Positions 1-14,002 of a stretch of DNA of 64,000 bases are shown piece by piece. Position 1 is the first letter of the stretch. Each line of letters opens with the position of its first letter. The position numbers were made by a program, and so were the translations under genes. The stretch comes from Escherichia coli (GTDB lineage: Bacteria; Pseudomonadota; Gammaproteobacteria; Enterobacterales; Enterobacteriaceae): the NCBI RefSeq assembly GCF_003018115.1, contig NZ_CP027457.1. One strand, written 5' to 3'. The notes under the pieces are model-generated. The model had not been told where the DNA came from and did not search any database. It saw only the letters and a list, made by a program, of their open reading frames with translations.

Positions 1-1388
1 CAATGCGTTTCGAAGCTTACGGCTGGCACGTTATTCGCGACATCGACGGCCATGACGCAGCATCCATCAAACGCGCAGTTGAAGAAGCGCGCGCAGTGAC
101 TGACAAACCGTCCCTGCTGATGTGCAAAACCATCATCGGTTTCGGTTCCCCGAACAAAGCCGGTACCCACGACTCCCACGGTGCGCCGCTGGGCGACGCT
201 GAAATTGCCCTGACCCGCGAACAGCTGGGCTGGAAATACGCGCCGTTCGAAATCCCGTCTGAAATCTATGCGCAGTGGGATGCGAAAGAAGCAGGTCAGG
301 CGAAAGAATCTGCATGGAACGAGAAGTTTGCTGCTTACGCCAAAGCTTATCCGCAGGAAGCTGCTGAATTCACCCGTCGTATGAAAGGCGAAATGCCGTC
401 TGACTTCGACGCGAAAGCGAAAGAGTTCATTGCTAAACTGCAGGCTAATCCGGCGAAAATCGCCAGCCGTAAAGCGTCTCAGAATGCTATTGAAGCGTTC
501 GGCCCGTTGTTGCCGGAATTCCTCGGCGGCTCTGCTGACCTGGCACCGTCTAACCTGACCCTGTGGTCTGGTTCTAAAGCAATCAACGAAGATGCTGCGG
601 GTAACTACATCCACTACGGTGTTCGCGAGTTCGGTATGACCGCGATTGCTAACGGTATCTCCCTGCACGGTGGTTTCCTGCCGTACACCTCCACCTTCCT
701 GATGTTCGTGGAATACGCACGTAACGCCGTACGTATGGCTGCGCTGATGAAACAGCGTCAGGTGATGGTTTACACCCACGACTCCATCGGTCTGGGCGAA
801 GACGGCCCGACTCACCAGCCGGTTGAGCAGGTCGCTTCTCTGCGCGTGACCCCGAACATGTCTACATGGCGTCCGTGTGACCAGGTTGAATCCGCGGTCG
901 CGTGGAAATACGGTGTTGAGCGTCAGGACGGTCCGACCGCGCTGATCCTCTCCCGTCAGAACCTGGCGCAGCAGGAGCGTACTGAAGAGCAACTGGCAAA
1001 CATCGCGCGCGGTGGTTATGTGCTGAAAGACTGTGCTGGTCAGCCGGAACTGATCTTCATCGCCACCGGTTCTGAAGTTGAACTGGCGGTTGCTGCCTAC
1101 GAAAAACTGACTGCCGAAGGCGTGAAAGCGCGCGTGGTTTCCATGCCGTCTACCGACGCATTCGACAAGCAGGACGCGGCTTACCGTGAGTCTGTCCTGC
1201 CGAAAGCGGTTACTGCACGCGTTGCGGTGGAAGCGGGTATTGCTGACTACTGGTACAAGTATGTTGGCCTGAACGGTGCTATCGTCGGTATGACCACCTT
1301 CGGTGAATCTGCTCCGGCAGAGCAACTCTTTGAAGAGTTCGGCTTCACCGTTGACAACGTTGTTGCGAAAGCAAAAGAACTGCTGTAA
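1..1388 (+). CDS. tktA: transketolase 1, C-terminal 461 codons; 5-prime end lies upstream of the window
   Basis: ORF 3..1388 is open to the window edge; translation has the transketolase motif region ([12 protein letters not shown]) and C-terminal domain, matching E. coli TktA; hairpin terminator follows the stop. Confidence 0.95.
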
Positions 1389-1402
1389 TTAGCATTTTGG
1401 GT

Positions 1403-1430
1403 AAAAAGGTCGCTTCGGCGACCTTTTTTA
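1403..1430 (+). terminator. intrinsic terminator downstream of tktA
   Basis: GC stem aggtcgc/gcgacct with ttcg loop followed by a T-run. Confidence 0.7.
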
Positions 1431-1701
1431 TTACCTTGACATGTCCGTTTTCGGACGAGCAATAGATAAAGCGTGTTGTAGATCACAAATATTTATATGC
1501 AATAAATATCAATTATGTAATATGCATCACGATATGCGTGTTGACATTTGTTGTTATATCTATAACTCAATGTTATATAAGAAATTAATAATTCACTGTT
1601 TTCAAAACACCGGTTTCCCTGCTCAATTGCTTTCATTAAACCGCACGAGTATTTTATTTTTACCGCCGGACGGTACCCTAAAAATAAAATAAGGATAATT
1701 T

Positions 1702-2145
1702 ATGCGGCTTAGTGATTATTTTCCAGAATCATCAATCTCAGTTATACATTCAGCAAAAGATTGGCAGGAAGCTATCGATTTCTCGATGGTATCATTGCTG
1801 GATAAAAACTATATCAGCGAGAATTACATTCAGGCAATTAAAGATTCCACCATTAACAATGGCCCTTATTATATTCTCGCACCAGGCGTGGCAATGCCTC
1901 ATGCGCGACCGGAATGTGGGGCGCTTAAAACCGGGATGTCTTTGACATTACTTGAACAAGGTGTTTATTTTCCGGGGAATGACGAACCAATTAAATTACT
2001 CATCGGACTCTCTGCTGCCGATGCCGATTCGCACATTGGCGCTATTCAGGCGTTAAGTGAATTACTGTGCGAAGAAGAAATACTCGAACAACTCTTAACA
2101 GCATCATCAGAAAAACAATTAGCGGACATTATCAGCCGCGGATAA
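1702..2145 (+). CDS. cmtB: PTS enzyme IIA component, mannitol-type, cryptic (147 aa)
   Basis: ATG at 1702 preceded by aaggataa SD; length and sequence match recalled CmtB; lies directly upstream of an EIICB gene. Confidence 0.85.
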   Translation: MRLSDYFPESSISVIHSAKDWQEAIDFSMVSLLDKNYISENYIQAIKDSTINNGPYYILAPGVAMPHARPECGALKTGMSLTLLEQGVYFPGNDEPIKLLIGLSAADADSHIGAIQALSELLCEEEILEQLLTASSEKQLADIISRG

Positions 2146-2172
2146 TTACTCTCTCCTCTACAGGATAATATT

Positions 2173-3561
2173 ATGGAAAACAAGTCTGCTCGTGCAAAGG
2201 TCCAGGCTTTTGGGGGCTTTTTGACTGCAATGGTCATCCCCAATATTGGTGCTTTTATTGCCTGGGGTTTTATTACTGCGTTATTTATTCCCACCGGTTG
2301 GCTGCCTAACGAACATTTCGCCAAAATTGTCGGCCCGATGATTACCTATTTATTGCCCGTGATGATTGGTTCTACCGGTGGTCATCTGGTCGGCGGTAAA
2401 CGCGGCACGGTCATGGGCGGAATAGGTACTATTGGTGTGATCGTCGGCGCAGAGATCCCGATGTTCCTTGGCTCAATGATTATGGGGCCGCTCGGTGGGC
2501 TGGTCATAAAATATGTCGATAAGGCACTGGAAAAACGCATACCTGCTGGTTTTGAGATGGTTATCAATAACTTCTCATTAGGTATCGCGGGGATGCTCCT
2601 TTGCCTGCTGGGTTTTGAAGTGATCGGCCCGGCGGTGTTAATTGCCAATACTTTCGTCAAAGAGTGTATTGAGGCGCTGGTACATGCGGGTTATCTGCCT
2701 CTGCTGTCAGTCATCAATGAACCGGCGAAAGTGCTTTTCCTTAATAATGCGATCGATCAGGGCGTCTATTATCCGCTGGGAATGCAACAGGCTTCGGTTA
2801 ACGGTAAATCCATCTTCTTTATGGTGGCCTCTAACCCAGGTCCGGGCCTGGGGCTGCTGCTGGCGTTTACCTTGTTTGGTAAAGGGATGAGTAAACGTTC
2901 TGCGCCCGGGGCGATGATTATTCACTTCCTCGGTGGGATCCACGAACTGTATTTCCCATATGTGCTGATGAAGCCGCTGACTATTATTGCCATGATTGTG
3001 GGCGGTATGTCTGGCACCTGGATGTTTAACTTACTGGACGGTGGTCTGGTGGCTGGCCCAAGTCCGGGGTCTATCTTTGCTTACCTGGCGCTGACGCCGA
3101 AAGGTTCGTTCCTGGCGACAATTGCCGGTGTTACGGTAGGTACCCTGGTGTCCTTTGCTATCACTTCGCTGATACTGAAGATGGAAAAAACGGTGGAAAC
3201 GGAGAGCGAAGATGAGTTTGCTCAGTCAGCCAATGTGGTTAAGGCGATGAAACAAGAGGGTGCATTCTCGTTAAGCAGGGTTAAGCGTATCGCCTTTGTT
3301 TGCGATGCGGGGATGGGCTCCAGTGCGATGGGCGCGACCACCTTCCGTAAACGCCTGGAAAAAGCGGGGCTGGCAATTGAAGTAAAACATTACGCCATAG
3401 AAAACGTGCCTGCGGATGCGGATATCGTCGTTACTCATGCCAGTCTGGAAGGGCGCGTGAAACGTGTGACGGATAAACCACTGATATTGATTAATAACTA
3501 TATTGGCGATCCAAAACTCGACACTTTATTTAATCAATTAACCGCCGAACATAAACACTGA
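2173..3561 (+). CDS. cmtA: PTS enzyme IICB component, mannitol-type, cryptic (462 aa)
   Basis: Polytopic membrane protein with EIIC-like hydrophobic core and C-terminal EIIB-like domain (FVCDAGMGSS); length matches CmtA. Confidence 0.85.
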   Translation: MENKSARAKVQAFGGFLTAMVIPNIGAFIAWGFITALFIPTGWLPNEHFAKIVGPMITYLLPVMIGSTGGHLVGGKRGTVMGGIGTIGVIVGAEIPMFLGSMIMGPLGGLVIKYVDKALEKRIPAGFEMVINNFSLGIAGMLLCLLGFEVIGPAVLIANTFVKECIEALVHAGYLPLLSVINEPAKVLFLNNAIDQGVYYPLGMQQASVNGKSIFFMVASNPGPGLGLLLAFTLFGKGMSKRSAPGAMIIHFLGGIHELYFPYVLMKPLTIIAMIVGGMSGTWMFNLLDGGLVAGPSPGSIFAYLALTPKGSFLATIAGVTVGTLVSFAITSLILKMEKTVETESEDEFAQSANVVKAMKQEGAFSLSRVKRIAFVCDAGMGSSAMGATTFRKRLEKAGLAIEVKHYAIENVPADADIVVTHASLEGRVKRVTDKPLILINNYIGDPKLDTLFNQLTAEHKH

Positions 3562-3575
3562 TTACAGAGGTAAAA

Positions 3576-4853
3576 ATGAAAACCAAAGTTGCTGCTATTT
3601 ATGGCAAGCGGGATGTCCGTCTGCGCGAATTTGAACTACCAGAAATTACCGATAATGAATTACTGGTGAGTGTGATTTCTGACAGCGTCTGTTTATCCAC
3701 CTGGAAAGCGGCGTTACTCGGTAGTGAACATAAACGCGTACCCGACGATTTAGAAAATCATCCGGTCATTACCGGGCATGAATGTGCCGGGGTTATTGTC
3801 GAAGTGGGTAAAAATCTCACTGGCAAATATAAAAAAGGCCAGCGTTTTGTATTGCAACCGGCGATGGGATTACCAAGCGGATATTCAGCGGGCTACAGCT
3901 ACGAATATTTTGGCGGCAATGCCACTTATATGATTATTCCCGAAATCGCCATTAATTTGGGCTGCGTATTACCGTATCACGGCTCTTATTTTGCTGCGGC
4001 GTCGCTGGCAGAGCCTATGTGCTGCATTATTGGTGCTTATCATGCCAATTATCACACCACGCAATATGTTTATGAGCATCGCATGGGCGTCAAACCTGGC
4101 GGCAATATTGCGCTACTGGCGTGTGCAGGTCCGATGGGCATTGGCGCTATAGATTACGCCATTAACGGCGGCATACAACCGTCGCGGGTGGTGGTGGTCG
4201 ATATCGACGACACACGTCTGGCGCAGGTACAGAAGCTGCTGCCGGTGGAACTGGCGGCCAGTAAAGGCATTGAGCTGGTGTATGTGAATACCAAAGGGAT
4301 GAGCGATCCTGTCCAGATGCTGCGGGCGCTGACAGGAGATGCCGGGTTCGATGACATTTTTGTTTATGCGGCGGTGCCTGCTGTCGTTGAGATGGCTGAT
4401 GAATTACTGGCGGAAGATGGCTGTCTGAACTTCTTTGCCGGGCCGACGGATAAAAACTTCAAAGTGCCGTTTAATTTCTACAACGTTCATTACAACAGCA
4501 CGCACGTCGTCGGTACATCCGGCGGTTCAACGGACGACATGAAAGAGGCGATTGCCCTTAGCGCCACTGGGCAGTTACAGCCGTCGTTTATGGTGACCCA
4601 TATCGGTGGCCTGGATGCGGTGCCAGAAACCGTGCTCAATCTGCCGGATATCCCTGGCGGTAAAAAACTCATTTATAACGGCGTGACCATGCCGCTCACT
4701 GCCATTGCCGATTTTGCCGAAAAAGGCAAAACCGATCCGCTGTTTAAAGAGTTGGCGCGGCTGGTTGAGAAAACGCACGGCATCTGGAATGAACAGGCCG
4801 AGAAATATCTGCTGGCACAATTTGGCGTTGATATCGGGGAGGCCGCGCAATGA
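3576..4853 (+). CDS. yggP: putative zinc-binding medium-chain dehydrogenase (425 aa)
   Basis: GHECAGVIVEVG zinc-ADH-like motif and a Rossmann-like GPMGIGAID stretch; position between cmtA and yggF. Confidence 0.75.
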   Translation: MKTKVAAIYGKRDVRLREFELPEITDNELLVSVISDSVCLSTWKAALLGSEHKRVPDDLENHPVITGHECAGVIVEVGKNLTGKYKKGQRFVLQPAMGLPSGYSAGYSYEYFGGNATYMIIPEIAINLGCVLPYHGSYFAAASLAEPMCCIIGAYHANYHTTQYVYEHRMGVKPGGNIALLACAGPMGIGAIDYAINGGIQPSRVVVVDIDDTRLAQVQKLLPVELAASKGIELVYVNTKGMSDPVQMLRALTGDAGFDDIFVYAAVPAVVEMADELLAEDGCLNFFAGPTDKNFKVPFNFYNVHYNSTHVVGTSGGSTDDMKEAIALSATGQLQPSFMVTHIGGLDAVPETVLNLPDIPGGKKLIYNGVTMPLTAIADFAEKGKTDPLFKELARLVEKTHGIWNEQAEKYLLAQFGVDIGEAAQ

Positions 4854-5815
4854 TGTCCCTGGCGTGGCCATTATTTCGCGTTACGGAACAGGCAGCGTTG
4901 GCTGCCTGGCCGCAAACCGGATGTGGCGACAAAAATAAAATTGATGGCCTGGCGGTCACCGCGATGCGCCAGGCATTAAACGAAGTCGCTTTTCGTGGAC
5001 GAGTGGTTATCGGCGAAGGAGAAATTGACCATGCGCCGATGCTGTGGATTGGAGAAGAGGTGGGCAAAGGCGATGGGCCAGAAGTCGATATCGCGGTTGA
5101 TCCCATTGAAGGCACGCGGATGGTGGCGATGGGGCAGAGCAATGCGCTGGCGGTCATGGCTTTCGCCCCTCGAGATAGCCTGTTACATGCGCCCGATATG
5201 TATATGAAAAAGCTGGTTGTTAATCGACTGGCTGCCGGGGCGATTGATCTGTCTTTGCCTCTGGCGGACAACTTGCGTAACGTGGCGCGGGCGTTAGGTA
5301 AACCGCTGGACAAGCTGCGCATGGTTACGCTGGATAAACCGCGTCTGAGTGCCGCGATTGAAGAAGCAACACAGCTGGGCGTGAAGGTTTTTGCCCTGCC
5401 GGATGGCGATGTCGCCGCCAGCGTGCTGACCTGCTGGCAGGATAATCCTTACGATGTGATGTACACCATCGGCGGTGCGCCGGAAGGCGTGATTTCTGCC
5501 TGTGCCGTTAAAGCATTAGGCGGGGATATGCAGGCCGAGCTGATTGACTTTTGTCAGGCTAAAGGGGATTACACGGAAAATCGGCAGATTGCAGAGCAGG
5601 AGCGCAAGCGTTGCAAGGCAATGGGCGTTGACGTTAACCGTGTGTACTCGCTCGATGAACTGGTGAGGGGGAACGATATCCTCTTTAGCGCTACGGGCGT
5701 GACGGGCGGTGAGCTGGTGAACGGTATCCAACAGACGGCGAATGGGGTGCGGACGCAGACATTACTGATCGGCGGCGCGGACCAAACGTGTAATATAATA
5801 GACTCCCTGCATTGA
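4850..5815 (+). CDS. yggF: class II fructose-1,6-bisphosphatase paralogue, GlpX-like (321 aa)
   Basis: Start overlaps yggP stop as ATGA; sequence resembles GlpX-family FBPase; length matches YggF. Confidence 0.8.
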   Translation: MMSLAWPLFRVTEQAALAAWPQTGCGDKNKIDGLAVTAMRQALNEVAFRGRVVIGEGEIDHAPMLWIGEEVGKGDGPEVDIAVDPIEGTRMVAMGQSNALAVMAFAPRDSLLHAPDMYMKKLVVNRLAAGAIDLSLPLADNLRNVARALGKPLDKLRMVTLDKPRLSAAIEEATQLGVKVFALPDGDVAASVLTCWQDNPYDVMYTIGGAPEGVISACAVKALGGDMQAELIDFCQAKGDYTENRQIAEQERKRCKAMGVDVNRVYSLDELVRGNDILFSATGVTGGELVNGIQQTANGVRTQTLLIGGADQTCNIIDSLH

Positions 5816-5836
5816 TGGTGATCTATCGGAAGACCA

Positions 5837-6346
5837 ATGGCGACGCTGACAGAAGATGATGTGCTTGAGCAACTGGATGCACAGGACAATTTATTTTCAT
5901 TTATGAAAACGGCGCATTCTATTTTGCTCCAGGGGATACGCCAGTTTCTACCGTCGCTGTTTGTCGATAACGATGAAGAGATCGTCGAATATGCAGTGAA
6001 GCCGTTACTCGCCCAAAGCGGCCCGCTTGACGATATTGATGTTGCGCTGCGTTTGATTTATGCGCTGGGGAAAATGGATAAATGGCTGTACGCCGATATC
6101 ACGCACTTTTCCCAGTTCTGGCATTACCTGAACGAACAGGATGAAATGCCCGGATTTGCCGATGACATGACCTGGGATTTTATCAGCAACGTCAATAGCA
6201 TAACCCGCAATGCGACGCTCTATGACGCGTTGAAAGCGATGAAGTTCGCCGATTTCGCCGTCTGGTCAGAGGCGCGTTTTAGCGGGATGGTCAAAACGGC
6301 GCTGACGCTGGCAGTAACGACAACCTTAAAGGAATTAACGCCGTGA
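5837..6346 (+). CDS. yggD: MtlR-like small regulatory protein (169 aa)
   Basis: ATG at 5837; 169 aa; position and size match YggD. Confidence 0.75.
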   Translation: MATLTEDDVLEQLDAQDNLFSFMKTAHSILLQGIRQFLPSLFVDNDEEIVEYAVKPLLAQSGPLDDIDVALRLIYALGKMDKWLYADITHFSQFWHYLNEQDEMPGFADDMTWDFISNVNSITRNATLYDALKAMKFADFAVWSEARFSGMVKTALTLAVTTTLKELTP

Positions 6347-7056
6347 AAATTGAATTAACGGTGAATGGTCTGAAGGTACAGGCACAGTACCATGATGATG
6401 AGATAGAAAATGTACATAAACCGTTGCTGCGCATGTTGGCGGCCTTACAGACGGTAAATCCGCAGCGGCGTACGGTAGTTTTTCTTTGCGCTCCGCCGGG
6501 GACGGGGAAATCTACCCTAACCACCTTCTGGGAATATCTCGCACAACAAGACCCGGAACTACCCGCTATTCAGACGCTCCCGATGGATGGTTTTCACCAT
6601 TACAATAGCTGGCTGGATGCGCATCAATTGCGCCCCTTCAAAGGCGCACCAGAGACATTTGACGTTGCGAAACTGGCGGAAAATCTGCGCCAGGTAATGG
6701 AAGGGGATTGTACGTGGCCACAGTACGATCGACAAAAGCATGATCCTGTTGAAGATGCGTTGCACGTTACCGCACCACTCGTCATCGTCGAAGGAAACTG
6801 GTTGTTGCTGGACGACGAGAAGTGGTGCCAGCTTGCGCAATTTTGTGATTTCTCGATCTTTATCAACGCGCCAGCTACTGCGTTGCGGGAACGACTGGTG
6901 GGGCGCAAGCTGGCGGGAGGGTTATCGCTGGCAGACGCAGAAGCCTTTTATGACCGTACCGATGGGCCGAATGTTCGCCGGGTGCTGGAAGAGAGTCTGC
7001 CTGCACATTTGACCTTAATAATGACCGCTACGGGTGAATATCGTCTGGTGGATTAA
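6343..7056 (+). CDS. yggC: P-loop nucleoside/pantothenate-kinase-like protein (237 aa)
   Basis: GTG start overlapping yggD stop as GTGA; Walker A motif APPGTGKST; 3-prime end overlaps the convergent ATPase gene. Confidence 0.8.
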   Translation: MKIELTVNGLKVQAQYHDDEIENVHKPLLRMLAALQTVNPQRRTVVFLCAPPGTGKSTLTTFWEYLAQQDPELPAIQTLPMDGFHHYNSWLDAHQLRPFKGAPETFDVAKLAENLRQVMEGDCTWPQYDRQKHDPVEDALHVTAPLVIVEGNWLLLDDEKWCQLAQFCDFSIFINAPATALRERLVGRKLAGGLSLADAEAFYDRTDGPNVRRVLEESLPAHLTLIMTATGEYRLVD

Positions 7057-7705
7057 CGTTCCTGATTACACCATCTTCCAGTCGCACCACCCGAGAGAAA
7101 TGACGCCGGGTAAATGCGGCGTCATGACTGATTGCTACGACGCTCGTGCCTCGCTGGCGGCACTTTTCCAGCCAGCTTTCAAACACGCTCATCCAATTTT
7201 CGTCAAAATCCCGACTCGGCTCGTCCAGCAGCAATAGCGGCGGAGAGAGTGCTTCCAGGCAGGCGACGGCGACCATCCGTCGCTGCGCACTATGCAGATC
7301 TAACGGATGCGCGCTGGCAGTGTCTGCTAACTGACAGCATTGCAGGGCAGCATGGGTACGTTGAGTGATTTCATCCGCCGGGCATTTTTGCAGTTTCAAA
7401 CCAAATGCGATCTCGTCGGCGACGGTGCTGTGAAAAAGCTGGTTTTCCGCTTCCTGAAACAGTACGCCAATCTTTGCTGCACGTTGGCGGTTTTTCAGGT
7501 TTTTCATCGCCTGTTGTTGCAATATAACCGTACCGGTTGTGGGCGTAAGAAGACCTGCCATTACTCGTAACAGCGTCGATTTTCCCGCGCCATTGTCGCC
7601 GGTCAGCGCCAACCATTCACCTTGTTTGAGTTGCAGAGAAATGTCGCAAAGACAATCCGTTGCCGCGCCAGGCCAGCGATAAGTTATCTGATTTAACGTT
7701 AGCAT
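7028..7705 (-). CDS. ABC-type ATPase (225 aa) with a degenerate signature motif; putative EcfA-like subunit 2
   Basis: Walker A GDNGAGKST, Q-loop FQEAE, Walker B LLLLDEPS, H-loop ISHD, but signature is LHSAQ instead of LSGGQ; its ATG overlaps the stop of the upstream ATPase (ATGCTAA). Confidence 0.8.
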   Translation of the reverse strand: MLTLNQITYRWPGAATDCLCDISLQLKQGEWLALTGDNGAGKSTLLRVMAGLLTPTTGTVILQQQAMKNLKNRQRAAKIGVLFQEAENQLFHSTVADEIAFGLKLQKCPADEITQRTHAALQCCQLADTASAHPLDLHSAQRRMVAVACLEALSPPLLLLDEPSRDFDENWMSVFESWLEKCRQRGTSVVAISHDAAFTRRHFSRVVRLEDGVIRNVNPPDDIHP

Positions 7706-8376
7706 AGTGGCTGGAGCGCTCCGTTTTGCAATTGCCAGGCTTGCTGGCAGTAGTTCAGGAAAGGTGTGCGATGACGTTCAAAAAGAATAATCAGCGAACC
7801 ACGTTCAAGCGCCCAGTGTTGTAAGCGCTGCAACAGCATTTCGCTGGCCTGCGGCGTCAGGCGACTAAAGGCTTCATCAAGTATTAAGAGCTTTGGCTGC
7901 ATCGCGATGGCGCAGGCGATGACCACGCGCTGTGTCTCTCCACCGGAGAGTGTTGCCGGGTGACGATGGCGCAACGGCTGGCACTCGGTCAGAGTCAGGG
8001 CGGCATCAATCCGCGCCATAATCTCTTCTTCAGCAAGACACAGATTTTCTGGCCCAAAGGCAACTTCTTCTTCCACGCTAAAGGTACAGCCGGAGAGCTG
8101 CAAATAGGGCGATTGCTGAACGAGCTGGATGGTGGCGGATTGTTCATTAAGCGGGAGATGCCCAATGGGCGTACCGAGAAGCGTCCCCGTGCCGGTTATC
8201 TCTCCTGGCAGAAAGTCCGGATACCAGCCCGCCATCAGCTGTGCCAGCGTACTTTTGCCACTGCCGTTGTCACCAAAGATGGCGACCATCCCCGGTTTGA
8301 CATAGTGAAAGTCATAACAGAACGGAGGATGCGTTGAGTGTGTCGGGCAATAACGGAACTGTTCTAACGTAACCAT
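7699..8376 (-). CDS. ABC-type ATPase (225 aa from ATG 8376; alternative GTG start at 8382) with canonical motifs; putative EcfA-like subunit 1
   Basis: Walker A GDNGSGKST, Q-loop QQSP, signature LSGGETQRV, Walker B LLILDEA; GGAG SD 7 nt upstream of the 8376 ATG. Confidence 0.8.
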   Translation of the reverse strand: MVTLEQFRYCPTHSTHPPFCYDFHYVKPGMVAIFGDNGSGKSTLAQLMAGWYPDFLPGEITGTGTLLGTPIGHLPLNEQSATIQLVQQSPYLQLSGCTFSVEEEVAFGPENLCLAEEEIMARIDAALTLTECQPLRHRHPATLSGGETQRVVIACAIAMQPKLLILDEAFSRLTPQASEMLLQRLQHWALERGSLIILFERHRTPFLNYCQQAWQLQNGALQPLC

Positions 8377-9071
8377 ATCCACGCTCCGAATTCTGTCAGC
8401 ATCAGCAAGATCATGGTGTAACGCGCTACGCGTTGTAGGGTGCTATCGGCTGGTGCCCACAACGTTGTTCGTCGGTTGTGGATCCGAAATGCCCGCATAT
8501 CCAGCGCCGCACCACGGACAGCAAGATTGTTTAGCGCATTGTGTGTTAGCGGAATAATTAACGCGGGCATCGCACGTAAACGCTGATACCAGCCCTCATC
8601 CAGCGGCACGCCGCGGGCACGCTGCGCTTCATGAATAATCGCTAATTGCCGTTTTAACTGCTCAACGACCAATAACGGCCCGGCAAACAGATAAGCGACG
8701 CCTGGCGGCAGGCGAGAAGCAAACAGAGCGCGGATAAAACATTGCACGGGGACGTACTGCATCCACAACTGTGAGGTTGAAACAATCGCCAGAATCCGCA
8801 ACCAGAGCGTAATAGCATGCGTCCAACGCTCCGGCGAACGCGGCGTGCCGCTTAGCCATTCTGTTAGCCAGCCACCGTGTACCAGCCACAGCCCGGCTCC
8901 CAGCGAGAACATCAGCCAGACGACATATTTTGCCCGCCGCCGCGTGGCCTTTAGCGCAATAAGGCAGAAAAAGGTCGCCGCGCTATAGACTGGCAGTATT
9001 GTCTGTGTGGGCAGGATAAGCGTGGTGCAGGCCGCCAATGCCCATAGTGTTAATGAGGTAAATGGATGCAT
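8364..9071 (-). CDS. EcfT/CbiQ-like transmembrane component (235 aa)
   Basis: Polytopic hydrophobic protein containing an EAQRARGVPLD stretch resembling the CbiQ/EcfT coupling motif; its ATG directly abuts the stop of the upstream gene (TAAATG). Confidence 0.7.
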   Translation of the reverse strand: MHPFTSLTLWALAACTTLILPTQTILPVYSAATFFCLIALKATRRRAKYVVWLMFSLGAGLWLVHGGWLTEWLSGTPRSPERWTHAITLWLRILAIVSTSQLWMQYVPVQCFIRALFASRLPPGVAYLFAGPLLVVEQLKRQLAIIHEAQRARGVPLDEGWYQRLRAMPALIIPLTHNALNNLAVRGAALDMRAFRIHNRRTTLWAPADSTLQRVARYTMILLMLTEFGAWIWLR

Positions 9072-9650
9072 TTAGCGCACGGCAGCCATTGCCGGAAAAT
9101 GGCGCGTGGTGCGAATCGGCAGCTGGCGCAGTAAAAGCCAGACAATCACCGCTGTAAGAGTTTTATCGACCAGGTTCGCGCCTATCACCGTAATCGCCAC
9201 CGACTCCACCAGGTTTTGCCCCATCGAGTGCATCCAGGCAACGAACAAATCGGCTCCGCTACCGGTGACACCGCCGAACAGCGCAGTACGCAGCGGTACA
9301 GCGACGACCGTTACCGCAAGCGTAATAATCACGCCGCTGACAACGACTTTTGGCAGGGTGCGAAACCAACCCGCTCGCGCCAGCCAACCGGCGACCAGGC
9401 CGATGACCATCGCGACGGGTGCAAATGCGGCGGCGATCGGGTCGGTCAGCAATCCCCAGAGTAAATTGGTCAGTAAGCCGGTCAGCATTCCGATCACCGG
9501 ACCAAGCAGTACCGCGCTAATAAGTGTGCCGATGGAGTCGAGAAATATAGGTAATTTGACCATGCTGGCCAGTTGCCCGCCGATCATATTGATGGCGATA
9601 GATATAACGATCAACACCAGTGCCTGACTGGAAAAGTGGCTACGCGCCAT
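9072..9650 (-). CDS. ECF-transporter S-component-like small integral membrane protein (192 aa from ATG at 9650; ORF track extends to a TTG at 9749)
   Basis: About six predicted TM helices with an N-terminal FLDSIGT motif; GAGAGG SD upstream of the 9650 ATG. Confidence 0.6.
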   Translation of the reverse strand: MARSHFSSQALVLIVISIAINMIGGQLASMVKLPIFLDSIGTLISAVLLGPVIGMLTGLLTNLLWGLLTDPIAAAFAPVAMVIGLVAGWLARAGWFRTLPKVVVSGVIITLAVTVVAVPLRTALFGGVTGSGADLFVAWMHSMGQNLVESVAITVIGANLVDKTLTAVIVWLLLRQLPIRTTRHFPAMAAVR

Positions 9651-9672
9651 AAGAAAACCTCTCTGAAAGTAG

Positions 9673-10104
9673 TTATTTAACGGGGGAAATATGCAACTCG
9701 TCGTAACCAGAAAGCGCGCAAGGTTGGCGGCTAAACGCCAGTTCCTCAAGGCTACCGATCACCAGTTCAAGCGTGGTCCGCACGGTACAGCCGGGCATCA
9801 TATGACCGCCAAGCATCGTGCCGTGTGGATCGGAAACGCAGAGATGAAGATGCTCACCACTCTGTTCCAACGTGCCGTTTAGTGAGATCACTTCGAATGT
9901 ACCGTTCAGGAGCGTGGTGCCTTCTTGCCCGGCATAGCGCAAGGCGATGTCAGTCAGGCTACCGGTACAGCCTGCAATCCAGGCGGCATGAAGTTGCTGC
10001 TGCTGTGCAAAAGCGTGTAGCTGGGAAAAAACTTCCTGCCCGGGGAGGAGGCGCAGTGCGTAAAAGCGTGCGGAGGAAGAATATGGGTAGGGCAATGTCA
10101 TCAT
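9673..10104 (-). CDS. PPC-domain (DUF296) protein, function unknown (143 aa); first gene of the transporter operon
   Basis: 143-aa soluble protein with a His/Cys-rich stretch (HLHLCVSDPHGTMLGGHMMPGC) that I recognise as PPC/DUF296-like; GGAG SD upstream of ATG at 10104. Confidence 0.6.
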   Translation of the reverse strand: MMTLPYPYSSSARFYALRLLPGQEVFSQLHAFAQQQQLHAAWIAGCTGSLTDIALRYAGQEGTTLLNGTFEVISLNGTLEQSGEHLHLCVSDPHGTMLGGHMMPGCTVRTTLELVIGSLEELAFSRQPCALSGYDELHISPVK

Positions 10105-10475
10105 TGGAGTACTCCGAAACTCGGACGTATTGCGGATAATATCGACGCTGCATCAGTCATATTCTGATATAAGTCAGGGTTTGTGACGGCACAACGAAAA
10201 GATTTTGCTACGCTTATTCGTGATTCTGCAAAGTGGAATAAATTCCACAGGGGCGGGGCTGAAAACGTGACGTAAGTCAGATATTTGTTTTCTTTGACTG
10301 GACAATCATTCCTTTTATTCCACGTTTCGCTTATCCTAGCTGAAGCGTTTCAGTCGATTAAATGTTCGACAATTAACCAATCAGTCGCAGTTTGCGACAG
10401 GTAAGGTTTCCCCGGACGATTTGCTGGATTACTCTGTCTGGCAAATTTGCTCAGGGAAAACCTTGCAGGAGATCT

Positions 10476-11495
10476 ATGACCGTACGCGTAGCGATAAATG
10501 GCTTCGGTCGCATCGGGCGTAATGTGGTTCGTGCTTTGTATGAATCCGGACGCCGGGCGGAAATTACCGTGGTGGCAATCAACGAACTGGCGGATGCTGC
10601 GGGCATGGCGCATTTGTTGAAATATGACACCAGCCATGGCCGTTTTGCATGGGAAGTACGACAGGAACGCGATCAACTTTTTGTTGGTGATGACGCCATC
10701 CGCGTATTGCATGAACGTTCACTGCAATCGCTCCCCTGGCGTGAACTTGGCGTTGATGTAGTCCTCGACTGCACCGGCGTATATGGCTCCCGCGAGCATG
10801 GCGAAGCGCATATTGCCGCCGGGGCCAAAAAAGTGCTCTTTTCACATCCTGGCAGTAACGATCTCGACGCGACCGTTGTTTACGGCGTCAATCAGGATCA
10901 ACTTCGTGCGGAACACCGCATCGTTTCTAACGCTTCCTGTACCACGAATTGCATAATTCCCGTCATCAAATTGTTAGATGATGCGTACGGTATTGAGTCC
11001 GGCACTGTGACCACAATTCACTCCGCCATGCACGATCAACAGGTTATTGATGCATACCATCCTGACCTGCGTCGCACCCGGGCAGCCAGCCAGTCGATCA
11101 TTCCGGTCGATACTAAACTGGCCGCCGGTATCACACGATTTTTTCCGCAATTTAACGATCGCTTTGAAGCGATTGCGGTACGTGTGCCAACCATAAATGT
11201 GACGGCAATCGATTTAAGCGTGACGGTGAAGAAACCTGTAAAAGCCAATGAAGTCAACCTGTTGCTGCAAAAAGCAGCACAAGGTGCATTTCATGGTATA
11301 GTTGACTATACGGAATTGCCGTTGGTCTCTGTAGATTTTAACCACGATCCGCACAGTGCCATTGTCGATGGCACCCAAACCCGGGTCAGTGGCGCACACC
11401 TGATCAAAACGTTGGTCTGGTGCGATAACGAATGGGGCTTTGCTAACCGAATGCTCGACACGACGTTAGCTATGGCTACTGTTGCTTTCAGGTAA
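10476..11495 (+). CDS. epd: D-erythrose-4-phosphate dehydrogenase (339 aa)
   Basis: [16 protein letters not shown]-terminus and GAPDH-family fold with catalytic SNASCTTNC; true ATG at 10476 inside the longer TTG-initiated ORF. Confidence 0.95.
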
Positions 11496-11544
11496 GACGC
11501 AAGCAGCGTCTGCAAAACTTTTAGAATCAACGAGAGGATTCACC

Positions 11545-12708
11545 ATGTCTGTAAATAAGATGACCGATCTGGATCTTGCTGGGAAACGTGTATTTATCCG
11601 TGCGGATCTGAACGTACCAGTAAAAGACGGGAAAGTAACCAGCGACGCGCGTATCCGTGCTTCTCTGCCGACCATCGAACTGGCCCTGAAACAAGGCGCA
11701 AAAGTGATGGTAACTTCCCACCTGGGTCGTCCTACCGAAGGCGAGTACAACGAAGAATTCTCTCTGCTGCCGGTTGTTAACTACCTGAAAGACAAACTGT
11801 CTAACCCGGTTCGTCTGGTTAAAGATTACCTCGACGGCGTTGACGTTGCTGAAGGTGAACTGGTTGTTCTGGAAAACGTTCGCTTCAACAAAGGCGAGAA
11901 GAAAGACGACGAAACCCTGTCCAAAAAATACGCTGCACTGTGTGACGTGTTCGTAATGGACGCATTCGGTACTGCTCACCGCGCGCAGGCTTCTACTCAC
12001 GGTATCGGTAAATTCGCTGACGTTGCATGCGCAGGCCCGCTGCTGGCAGCTGAACTGGACGCGCTGGGTAAAGCACTGAAAGAACCTGCTCGCCCGATGG
12101 TGGCTATCGTTGGTGGTTCTAAAGTATCTACCAAACTGACCGTTCTGGACTCCCTGTCTAAAATCGCTGACCAGCTGATTGTTGGTGGTGGTATCGCTAA
12201 CACCTTTATCGCGGCACAAGGCCACGATGTGGGTAAATCCCTGTACGAAGCTGACCTGGTTGACGAAGCTAAACGTCTGCTGACCACCTGCAACATCCCG
12301 GTTCCGTCTGATGTTCGCGTAGCAACCGAGTTCTCTGAAACTGCACCGGCTACCCTGAAATCTGTTAACGATGTGAAAGCTGACGAGCAGATCCTGGATA
12401 TCGGTGATGCTTCCGCTCAGGAACTGGCTGAAATCCTGAAGAATGCGAAAACCATTCTGTGGAACGGTCCGGTTGGCGTGTTCGAATTCCCGAACTTCCG
12501 CAAAGGTACTGAAATCGTGGCTAACGCTATCGCAGACAGCGAAGCGTTCTCCATCGCTGGCGGCGGCGACACTCTGGCAGCAATCGACCTGTTCGGCATT
12601 GCTGACAAAATCTCCTACATCTCCACTGGCGGCGGCGCATTCCTCGAATTCGTGGAAGGTAAAGTACTGCCTGCAGTAGCGATGCTCGAAGAGCGCGCTA
12701 AGAAGTAA
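11545..12708 (+). CDS. pgk: phosphoglycerate kinase (387 aa)
   Basis: [26 protein letters not shown]-terminus; ATG 11545 with GAGAGGA SD. Confidence 0.95.
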
Positions 12709-12716
12709 AAAATCAC

Positions 12717-12745
12717 AGGGCAGGGAAACCTGCCCTTGTTTCAGC
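12717..12745 (+). terminator. stem-loop between pgk and fbaA; likely partial terminator or processing site
   Basis: 8-bp stem agggcagg/cctgccct with GAAA loop followed by a T-rich stretch. Confidence 0.45.
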
Positions 12746-12922
12746 GCGCTTTTAGAGCACGCATTTTTTCATACTCTAAATAATTCGAGTTGCAGGAAGG
12801 CGACAAGAGAGTGAATCCCCAGGAGCTTACATAAGTAAGTGACTGGGGTGAGCGAACGCAGACGCAGCACATGCAACTTGAAGTATGACGAGTATAAGGC
12901 CCGACGATACAGGACAAGAGAC

Positions 12923-14002
12923 ATGTCTAAGATTTTTGATTTCGTAAAACCTGGCGTAATCACTGGTGATGACGTACAGAAAGTTTTCCAGGTAGCAAAA
13001 GAAAACAACTTCGCACTGCCAGCAGTAAACTGCGTCGGTACTGACTCCATCAACGCCGTACTGGAAACCGCTGCTAAAGTTAAAGCGCCGGTTATCGTTC
13101 AGTTCTCCAACGGTGGTGCTTCCTTTATCGCTGGTAAAGGCGTGAAATCTGACGTTCCGCAGGGTGCTGCTATCCTGGGCGCGATCTCTGGTGCGCATCA
13201 CGTTCACCAGATGGCTGAACATTATGGTGTTCCGGTTATCCTGCACACTGACCACTGCGCGAAGAAACTGCTGCCGTGGATCGACGGTCTGCTGGACGCG
13301 GGTGAAAAACACTTCGCTGCTACCGGCAAGCCGCTGTTCTCTTCTCACATGATCGACCTGTCTGAAGAATCTCTGCAAGAGAACATCGAAATCTGCTCTA
13401 AATACCTGGAGCGCATGTCCAAAATCGGCATGACTCTGGAAATCGAACTGGGTTGCACCGGTGGTGAAGAAGACGGCGTGGACAACAGCCACATGGACGC
13501 TTCTGCACTGTACACCCAGCCGGAAGACGTTGATTACGCATACACCGAGCTGAGCAAAATCAGCCCGCGTTTCACCATCGCAGCGTCCTTCGGTAACGTA
13601 CACGGTGTTTACAAGCCGGGTAACGTTGTTCTGACTCCGACCATCCTGCGTGATTCTCAGGAATATGTTTCTAAGAAACACAACCTGCCGCACAACAGCC
13701 TGAACTTCGTATTCCACGGTGGTTCCGGTTCTACTGCTCAGGAAATCAAAGACTCCGTAAGCTACGGCGTAGTGAAAATGAACATCGATACCGATACCCA
13801 ATGGGCAACCTGGGAAGGCGTTCTGAACTACTACAAAGCGAACGAAGCTTATCTGCAGGGTCAGCTGGGTAACCCGAAAGGCGAAGATCAGCCGAACAAG
13901 AAATACTACGATCCGCGCGTATGGCTGCGTGCCGGTCAGACTTCGATGATCGCTCGTCTGGAAAAAGCATTCCAGGAACTGAACGCGATCGACGTTCTGT
14001 AA
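12923..14002 (+). CDS. fbaA: fructose-bisphosphate aldolase class II (359 aa)
   Basis: MSKIFDFVKPGVITGDD N-terminus; ATG at 12923. Confidence 0.95.
   Translation: MSKIFDFVKPGVITGDDVQKVFQVAKENNFALPAVNCVGTDSINAVLETAAKVKAPVIVQFSNGGASFIAGKGVKSDVPQGAAILGAISGAHHVHQMAEHYGVPVILHTDHCAKKLLPWIDGLLDAGEKHFAATGKPLFSSHMIDLSEESLQENIEICSKYLERMSKIGMTLEIELGCTGGEEDGVDNSHMDASALYTQPEDVDYAYTELSKISPRFTIAASFGNVHGVYKPGNVVLTPTILRDSQEYVSKKHNLPHNSLNFVFHGGSGSTAQEIKDSVSYGVVKMNIDTDTQWATWEGVLNYYKANEAYLQGQLGNPKGEDQPNKKYYDPRVWLRAGQTSMIARLEKAFQELNAIDVL

Follow-up and report, generated by a model that had tools for sequence, protein, structure and literature searches.

The locus lies in a 64,000-nucleotide stretch of an Escherichia coli genome (hereafter the window), in which yggC and a gene for an ABC-type ATPase converge from opposite strands and have their last 29 nt in common. 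The features of this junction, and of the gene cluster to which the ATPase gene belongs, are as follows.

6343..7056, plus strand: yggC, encoding a 237-aa protein of the nucleoside/nucleotide kinase family, with a GTG start (ORF list, RefSeq).
7028..7056, both strands: convergent overlap of 29 nt in phase (123:132), read from the sequence.
7028..7705, minus strand: distal ABC ATPase, homolog of z4271, 225 aa (ORF list, RefSeq, Pfam ABC_tran).
7699..8376, minus strand: proximal ABC ATPase, homolog of z4270 (RefSeq, at 2900..3577 of locus L001 of strain F9792; Pfam ABC_tran).
8364..9071, minus strand: ECF T component, homolog of z4269 (RefSeq; Pfam CbiQ at 21.4 bits, below the cut-off of 25).
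9072..9650, minus strand: ECF S component, homolog of z4268 (RefSeq; Pfam ECF_trnsprt at 32.5 against a cut-off of 30.7).
9673..10104, minus strand: homolog of lmiA (z4267) with a PPC/DUF296 domain, the first gene of the cluster (Pfam PCC at 98.7 bits, RefSeq).

The yggC gene (plus strand, 6343..7056) ends in GAT TAA, with its stop at 7054-7056, and the distal ATPase gene (minus strand, 7028..7705) ends in CAC CCG TAG, with its stop at 7030..7028, which reads cta on the plus strand, so that codon position 3 of yggC stands opposite codon position 2 of the ATPase gene. A sequence-only reading of this DNA had reported a 29-bp convergent overlap with stops at 7054..7056 and 7028..7030, and it is confirmed by the sequence, the ORF list and RefSeq. 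RefSeq/PGAP gives identical gene ends in strain F9792 (L001 1544..2257 on the plus strand and 2229..2906 on the minus strand, where window coordinates equal L001 coordinates plus 4799) and in CFT073. The 4.2-kb stretch around the junction has its closest match in F9792, at 100.0% identity (rounded; at least one mismatch), and is 97.9% identical to O157:H7 strains, while the strain of the window is itself not O157. We found the junction in 3,320 of 5,426 complete E. coli genomes, at 95-99% identity; as it is common to thousands of assemblies, sequencing error is excluded. YggC matches the NCBIfam model NF006742 over positions 1-237 of 237 (520 bits, cut-off 402), and the ATPase matches Pfam ABC_tran at 96 bits and has 561 homologs at E <= 1e-20. 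Both partners in the overlap are thus real coding genes with homologs, and the stop of each lies inside the coding sequence of the other.

Within the cluster, the proximal and distal ATPase genes overlap by 7 nt in the same direction, and beyond lmiA come epd and pgk on the plus strand. RefSeq names the cluster genes as ECF components. The best NCBIfam matches of the two ATPases are likewise ECF_ATPase models, though with scores far below the cut-offs (150 vs 330) and without the last ~50 positions of these 269-279-position models, and the S component reaches 134.9 bits against a CD3073-family model, short of the cut-off of 180. This cluster is the one described as O island 119 (OI-119) in EHEC O157:H7 EDL933, where it extends from z4267 (lmiA) to z4271: the five-gene content and order and the place between epd and yggC are the same, the DNA is 97.9% identical to O157:H7, and the segment specific to the island is 3,266 bp long here as compared to a published 3,267 bp (PMC8565820). 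Previous work has described LmiA as a PhoQ/PhoP-dependent activator of ler that is induced by low Mg2+, and has found adherence to be unaffected by deletion of z4268-z4271 (PMC7667037). In E. coli W, a 'cobalt transport system' has been noted between epd and yggC that is missing from K-12 and B (PMC3032704). Both papers on OI-119 hold the island to be horizontally acquired, and both are silent on the overlap with yggC, on island coordinates that start inside yggC and on the same arrangement in Salmonella and Citrobacter (PMC7667037; PMC8565820); our literature search found nothing on the overlap.

We compared the junction across genera by a pattern-based scan for YggC in one genome per species, which gave 67 loci as a non-exhaustive sample, onto which the island proteins were mapped. 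Every sampled locus in which the cluster adjoins yggC has an overlap, with a length between 11 and 92 nt: 29 nt in E. coli, E. albertii and E. whittamii, 26 nt in Silvania, 41 nt in Superficieibacter, 44 nt in the Citrobacter freundii complex, 68 nt in C. koseri, 92 nt in the Enterobacteriaceae MAG UBA5654, 11 nt in Phytobacter and 32 nt in Salmonella enterica. It is the overlapping state, and not its length, that is retained in at least seven genera. Many genomes have one module, the cmt-ygg genes or the ECF cluster, without the other. C. freundii and Klebsiella pasteurii have the same five genes beside epd and lack the cmt-ygg module, with tktA as the gene that comes next. In these two loci, the ones in which the tktA context was checked, the ATPase is 216 aa (C. 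freundii) or 218 aa (K. pasteurii) long as compared to 225 aa here, its homology to the E. coli gene ends at an RLxxGxL motif, and its stop precedes a terminator of A-run, hairpin and T-run (AAAAAAAACGGGCCGC..GCGACCCGCTTTTT) by 14 nt in C. freundii and 0 nt in K. pasteurii. Other close orthologs of the ATPase (Leclercia and others) have 214-219 aa and end right after RLxxGxL. A search of the window for the terminator motif of the tktA type found none, and the window seems not to reach tktA. Losses were also seen: the Escherichia lineages L004 and L008 have internal deletions of the cluster and keep a 3' fragment of the ATPase gene together with an intact 237-aa yggC, and E. coli BS-04 has lost both cluster and overlap, with its yggC annotated as a frameshifted pseudogene.

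Two small features within the junction bear on where the ATPase ends.

7027..7032, plus strand: yggC codons GCT ACG (Ala229-Thr230), whose complement supplies the ATPase stop TAG.
7031..7063, minus strand: C-terminal tail of the ATPase, R215-P225, unconserved in sequence and length, with V217-P225 inside the overlap.

In this phase, an antisense stop arises wherever a plus-strand codon ending in TT, CT or TC is followed by a codon that starts with A. Six genes of the window gave a rate of 0.046 antisense stops per codon and a mean open run of ~22 codons, and with this rate, taken from the window's own genes, an antisense open run of at least 9 codons has a probability of 0.65. The length of the overlap fits the chance spacing of antisense stops, and what needs explaining is the lack of any spacer. 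The conserved part of the ATPase reaches to about I214 (7064-7066), which lies 7 nt past the yggC stop. In place of yggC GCT ACG, Salmonella has TCT ACG and hence the same antisense stop, whereas Citrobacter has GTC GAG or similar codons there, which yield no antisense stop, and its ATPase is 5 codons longer, with a stop that is the complement of yggC CT(T/C) ATG. Since the ATPase is shorter and terminator-ended beside tktA, we conclude that it has neither a stop nor a terminator of its own at the yggC junction, and uses a stop provided by the complement of yggC.

The pattern of variation suggests which of the two genes constrains the DNA that they share. Across the last eight aligned yggC codons of 16 island-bearing loci, entropy is 1.14 at codon position 3 as compared to 0.43 and 0.51 at positions 1 and 2, and the 18 codons upstream show the same pattern, as do 17 island-free loci. 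Because position 3 of yggC lies opposite position 2 of the ATPase gene, such changes always alter amino acids of the ATPase. Among 27 YggC sequences, those of island-free loci included, at least 90% have G231 and all have Y233, and in the AF2 model of YggC (pLDDT 94) residues 233-235 form a strand that pairs with 223-227 at high confidence. In the AF2 model of the ATPase (pLDDT 88.6), the last strand comprises residues 213-217 and residues 218-225 are coil, with a mean pLDDT of 49 for the last five. An alignment of 17 ATPase orthologs, of 214-229 aa in total length, has its last invariant columns at R208-L209. A loose P-x-D-I-H/R pattern does recur in the ATPase tail in several genera, which we attribute to its probable origin as the complement of the conserved YggC G-E-Y-R codons. 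From the third-position variation, the conservation of YggC, the AF2 models and the complement origin of the tail pattern, we conclude that yggC governs the overlapped DNA and that the ATPase tail is a passenger.

We also looked for signals that could end or regulate the two converging transcripts. A simple pattern scan of 6300..7800 found no terminator-like sites, nor were any seen in the island past either stop; when 6300..7800 and 1400..10500 were scanned for terminator and promoter patterns, nothing turned up at the junction or close to it, and counts were at or below the expectation from shuffled sequence. An Rfam scan of 5800..10700 at E <= 1 returned no match, and the junction did not fold more stably than shuffled sequences (z = -1.0, -1.15 and +0.64). 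These scans bear out the sequence-only reading in that there is neither room for nor sign of separate intrinsic terminators. A perfect 9-bp hairpin at 7100-7108 / 7117-7125, 44 nt past the yggC stop, might be taken for a hidden yggC terminator, a reading that we rejected: its region has a z of about -1, no T-run follows on the plus strand, the hairpin encodes the conserved ATPase segment HDAAFT(R/Q)RH, and it is present also where yggC is absent. In island-free strains, a stable hairpin (z = -2.9) lies directly 3' of yggC and is kept in C. braakii, Raoultella and C. amalonaticus. Untranslated RNA that is rich in C and poor in G favours Rho. As the read-through RNA past each stop is untranslated and C-rich relative to G, Rho-dependent termination past each stop is likely. 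It is also plausible, as had been proposed from the letters of the junction, that the yggC and ATPase transcripts are mutually antisense at their 3' ends.

A comparison of island-bearing with island-free strains places the island boundary inside yggC, well upstream of the overlap.

6808..6825, no strand: left crossover interval (mismatch map of CFT073 vs Rb-50).
6826..7056, plus strand: yggC codons 162-237, the island-linked block, with 50-73% nucleotide identity to island-free E. coli.
10105..10254, no strand: island-specific part of the lmiA-epd intergenic region (BLAST breakpoints, spacer alignment).

By BLAST, the two forms cease to match at L001 2189 and match again from L001 5456 (L002 2321), which yields an island-specific segment of 3,266 bp that starts 68 nt inside yggC. 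The mismatch map of CFT073 vs Rb-50 is finer: few mismatches occur as far as yggC nt 465, and from nt 484 (window 6826) they are dense, so the true boundary lies 231-248 nt before the end of the yggC stop and not at the overlap. There, the nucleotide identity of yggC between island-bearing and island-free strains drops from ~97% to 50-73%, and nucleotide divergence jumps from ~2-5% to ~32%. In yggC codons 2-159, dS is 0.09-0.19, as compared to 1.99-2.08 in codons 160-233, where dN is 0.29-0.30. On the right side, a palindrome, GTGGAATAAATTCCAC, lies at 10233-10248 in the island-specific lmiA-epd spacer, and high identity with island-free strains is back at ~10255. The sequence-only reading, which had set the island boundary within coding sequence, was right in so far as it falls inside yggC, and mistaken in putting it at the overlap, since it is found 231 nt before the end of the stop. 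Its suggestion to compare the YggC C-terminus in strains that lack the transporter genes brought out a different sequence, 63% identical over the last 78 aa, at an unchanged length, as YggC of island-free (K-12-type) strains also has 237 aa.

The two yggC ends behave as alternative states of one region. The island is present in 3,317 genomes, an island-type yggC 3' end in 3,320 and a K-12-type end with spacer in 2,095, the two end types together making up 5,415 of the 5,425 genomes that have any match; comparing these totals, end type and island presence occur in the numbers expected under near-complete linkage. In a neighbor-joining tree of the 5' part of yggC, all Escherichia group together whatever their island state, while in the tree of the 3' part the alleles of island-free E. 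coli fall outside Escherichia + Citrobacter. The features of a classical mobile island, namely a mobility gene, an attachment site, repeats and a distinct composition, are absent: there are no direct repeats that pair the two boundaries, no tRNA genes in 1..14000, no mobility gene or integrase among the five cluster genes (by Pfam and RefSeq), and no shift in G+C, which is 53-58% in the cluster vs 49-56% in the flanks. The cluster is present in E. albertii, E. whittamii, E. marmotae and E. ruysiae, and remnants of it in two further Escherichia lineages. The island-bearing state looks ancestral in Escherichia, since every sampled species of the genus other than E. coli has the island-type block and the junction is found in Salmonella and Citrobacter as well. 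Both forms, island-bearing and island-free, occur in several genera. No donor of the K-12-type yggC 3' block closer than ~68% amino acid identity was found among the 67 loci, and searching a database with the 78-aa segment yielded nothing but short fragments of E. coli type; import of this block and a very old polymorphism kept within Escherichia are both compatible with this outcome. The divergent block with dS ~2 over the last ~76 yggC codons of island-free strains argues for allelic replacement, and indicates that the two forms are probably old, alternative haplotype blocks swapped by homologous recombination rather than products of an insertion. Homologous recombination in flanking core genes is an established source of presence/absence polymorphism with mosaic flanks in E. 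coli populations. The locus resembles such segment replacements in its divergence jump within a gene, its linked flank and its lack of mobility genes and repeats.

Tail-to-tail overlaps of this kind are common. The phase (123:132) is the commonest among convergent overlaps of at least 5 nt, at 49%, and 58 convergent overlaps of this phase are known in E. coli, while only 23 of 116 E. coli genes in convergent overlaps (20%) have a predicted intrinsic terminator (PMC2174442). Such overlaps form when a gene that has lost its stop codon, or the spacer behind it, is extended at the 3' end (Rogozin et al. 2002, cited in PMC2478687; Lillo & Krakauer 2007, PMC2174442). The yggC/ATPase pair agrees with this class in that both genes are real and on opposite strands, the phase is the commonest one, one partner is extended at its 3' end and the length is below 60 nt; it likewise has no intrinsic terminator, as in 80% of such E. 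coli genes. Nothing essential sets it apart, and the pair here stands exactly at the seam of two modules that are present or absent independently. Excludons and the overlapping 3' UTRs of convergent operons, known from Listeria and Staphylococcus, are a second class of possible relatives, in which cis-antisense transcription is regulatory. The locus resembles them in that convergent units with no terminator between them would give complementary 3' ends. It differs in that its sequence bears the marks of drift and not of a conserved RNA element.

Several other accounts of the junction deserve to be weighed. Long overlaps in databases are often misannotations (PMC2478687), and one of the two genes might truly end sooner, but an annotation or sequencing artefact has a practically negligible chance of accounting for an overlap that is shorter (29 nt) than the 60-nt flag used in that study, that is defined by stop codons and therefore free of start-codon ambiguity, and whose sequence recurs in thousands of independent assemblies; YggC, moreover, fits its 237-position equivalog model end to end. 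An earlier in-frame stop in either ORF was one observation that the sequence-only reading had named as counting against an overlap, and the sequence and the ORF list contain none in yggC or in the ATPase gene. That same reading implied a K-12-like ancestor and a simple insertion with its left end in the last yggC codons, a history which agrees with the lack of the cluster in K-12-type strains and with its description as a horizontally acquired O island (PMC7667037). We regard it as highly improbable, as the block of saturated divergence also spans the last ~76 yggC codons of island-free strains, the cluster or its remnants and a homologous junction are found in other sampled Escherichia, in Salmonella and in Citrobacter, and direct repeats, tRNA, integrase and composition shift are all wanting; with a block at dS ~2.0 next to one at 0.09-0.19, haplotype replacement takes the place of insertion as the cause. 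The ATPase tail might instead be functional, for instance by contacting the other ATPase of a dimer or the T component, with the overlap held by selection on both proteins. The constant 225 aa in E. coli, E. albertii, E. whittamii, E. marmotae and E. ruysiae and the recurrence of the loose tail pattern in several genera would be expected in that case, yet the pattern is the complement of YggC codons, close orthologs (C. freundii, K. pasteurii, Leclercia and others) do with 214-219 aa, about half of the 11 tail residues differ within Escherichia vs 84% identity overall, the variation falls on second codon positions of the ATPase and the modelled tail is a low-confidence coil, all of which makes a functional tail quite improbable.

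The junction might also be regulatory. As an excludon or cis-antisense device, it would let PhoP/low-Mg2+ induction of the lmiA-ECF genes lower expression of the cmt-ygg operon, and the reverse, either because polymerases collide or because RNase III cuts the 3' ends where they pair. With no terminator-like site between the operons, two-way read-through is likely; low Mg2+ reportedly induces lmiA via PhoQ/PhoP (PMC7667037), and the spacer-less junction has been kept in at least seven genera. However, the length of the overlap drifts from 11 to 92 nt together with an unconserved ATPase tail, the junction folds no better than shuffled sequence, either module is found alone in many genomes, and a single lmiA-z4271 transcript is not stated in PMC7667037, so we consider such a device unlikely. 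A more specific form of the idea is that the junction might act as a conditional transcriptional-interference switch, at which low-Mg2+/PhoP-induced transcription of lmiA-z4271 would send polymerases and antisense RNA into the yggC 3' end, and so set a virulence-linked regulator operon against the cmt-glpX-fumE-yggC sugar/polyol operon. Inverse coupling of this sort, if true, would explain why a terminator-free seam has been kept from Salmonella to Escherichia, and we mention it as a long shot.

Our preferred reading, to which we assign a probability of roughly 0.8, is that the two genes overlap tail to tail in a passive and ordinary way where two accessory modules meet between tktA and epd in Enterobacteriaceae. 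One module is the cmt-yggP-glpX-fumE-yggC operon and the other the lmiA-ECF cluster (O island 119), joined at a seam that has neither an intergenic spacer, nor a stop belonging to the ATPase gene, nor an intrinsic terminator that the scans could find. Translation of the ATPase would run into the antisense of yggC up to the first chance stop, which in Escherichia and Salmonella is the complement of yggC (G/T)CT ACG. The shared DNA probably evolves under the constraint of yggC, because it encodes the last beta-strand of YggC, and the ATPase tail would be a dispensable, disordered passenger. The boundary inside yggC would have a separate cause, the exchange of two old haplotype blocks by homologous recombination, with crossovers at about yggC codons 156-161 and ~220 nt upstream of epd. 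The K-12-type block has a yggC 3' end of its own, which is highly divergent and has a hairpin directly behind it. Both transcripts would end in a Rho-dependent manner in the untranslated antisense stretch, and antisense pairing of their 3' ends may be incidental. As to how the modules came together or apart, insertion may have produced the two-module state or deletion the one-module states.

As a mechanism, the junction is one more convergent overlap of the commonest phase and carries little weight. It has a practical side, in that deleting OI-119 by its published coordinates, or just z4271, can take away or change the final codons of yggC; the phenotypes of OI-119 and z4271 mutants therefore need to be checked for yggC effects, and BS-04 offers a natural example. 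The locus further illustrates how an open reading frame with no stop of its own can be ended by the complement of a neighbor's codons, and which partner controls the DNA that both share. More generally, the cluster that carries lmiA, a virulence regulator of EHEC, appears to have been at this locus ancestrally in Escherichia, Salmonella and Citrobacter rather than to be a recent acquisition, and in this picture it is the K-12 lineage that bears the replaced segment.

Three features of the five-gene lmiA-ECF transporter cluster between yggC and epd, or of its flank, are listed here by window position:

7100-7125, in the ATPase gene, a perfect inverted repeat (9-bp arms, 8-nt loop) that encodes HDAAFTRRH
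9673-10104, the lmiA homolog
10233-10248, a perfect 16-nt palindrome, GTGGAATAAATTCCAC, in the lmiA-epd intergenic spacer, at the right-hand boundary of the island-specific DNA

The two ATPases encoded at 7028-8376 are short, at 225 and 227 aa, and align only to approximately position 223-231 of ECF ATPase models that extend over 269-279 positions, so that ~50 residues at the C-terminus of canonical EcfA/EcfA' have no counterpart in them. The inverted repeat at 7100-7125, which is followed by TTTCTCTC on the ATPase sense strand, also occurs in loci without yggC, and folding of the region around it gave no significance. The core of the spacer palindrome, TGGAATAA, is common to island-bearing and island-free forms as well as to other genera, and the palindrome is possibly a protein-binding site.

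Island-free genomes carry, directly 3' of yggC, a long imperfect hairpin (TTATTCCAG ... CTGGAATAA; inner stem, for example, GCCGTAAT/ATTACGGC):

L002:2262-2310, post-yggC hairpin of E. coli Rb-50, with counterparts in loci L009, L014, L017, L019, and L020

This hairpin is kept in E. coli of the K-12 type, C. braakii, Raoultella planticola, and C. amalonaticus, has a fold z of -2.9 in the island-free form, and probably serves there as the yggC terminator. The right arm of the hairpin shares homology with the palindrome that island-bearing strains have upstream of lmiA. With Rb-50 as the reference (L002:2021-2320), matches among E. coli genomes separate the island-free block into two sub-types that are ~94% identical over 300 nt, and 1,757 genomes, K-12 derivatives included, fall in the 90-95% identity band relative to the Rb-50 block.

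The yggC gene of Raoultella planticola groups inside Citrobacter for both gene halves (Raoultella loci L017 and L016) and differs from that of C. braakii (L014) by only 9-11% at the nucleotide level, which suggests transfer of the locus between genera. Elsewhere in the cmt-yggP-glpX-fumE-yggC operon (the cmt-ygg module), the window (4850-5815) and strain F9792 have an intact glpX-like gene, yggF, which is annotated as split or as a pseudogene in CFT073 and Rb-50 (701-1016 in both L003 and L002).

Partial forms of the cluster were found in two Escherichia lineages other than E. coli, in which yggC is intact and the ATPase gene that overlaps it is reduced to a 3' part beside yggC:

L004, 6673-6912, ATPase 3' remnant
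L008, 6686-6982, ATPase 3' remnant

The second of these also retains lmiA codons 1-27, and the two remnants are internal deletions of the cluster, independent of each other. In a single strain, E. coli BS-04 (L071:2700-2770), ~50 nt of unrelated DNA (TTTTTTTTTAAATAAGAAGACCTGTCTTACTTAACAGCGACGATTTATCCG) stand in place of the entire cluster and the overlap, and the annotation gives yggC as a pseudogene with a frameshift. Buttiauxella sp. B2 has S-component and lmiA homologs (L049 1-884) on the far side of the cmt-ygg module, ~4.6 kb upstream of fumE, and in this genus yggC immediately adjoins epd; the transporter module is therefore differently placed there.

The lmiA/OI-119 island has been described as horizontally acquired by EHEC (PMC7667037). 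The five-gene cluster is carried by 61% of complete E. coli genomes, and it was also found adjacent to epd in E. albertii, E. whittamii, Salmonella, Citrobacter, Klebsiella pasteurii, and others (loci L006, L007, L011, L013, L072, L074, and L076). At the yggC-epd locus, the cluster looks ancestral, and the K-12 type appears to be the derived state.
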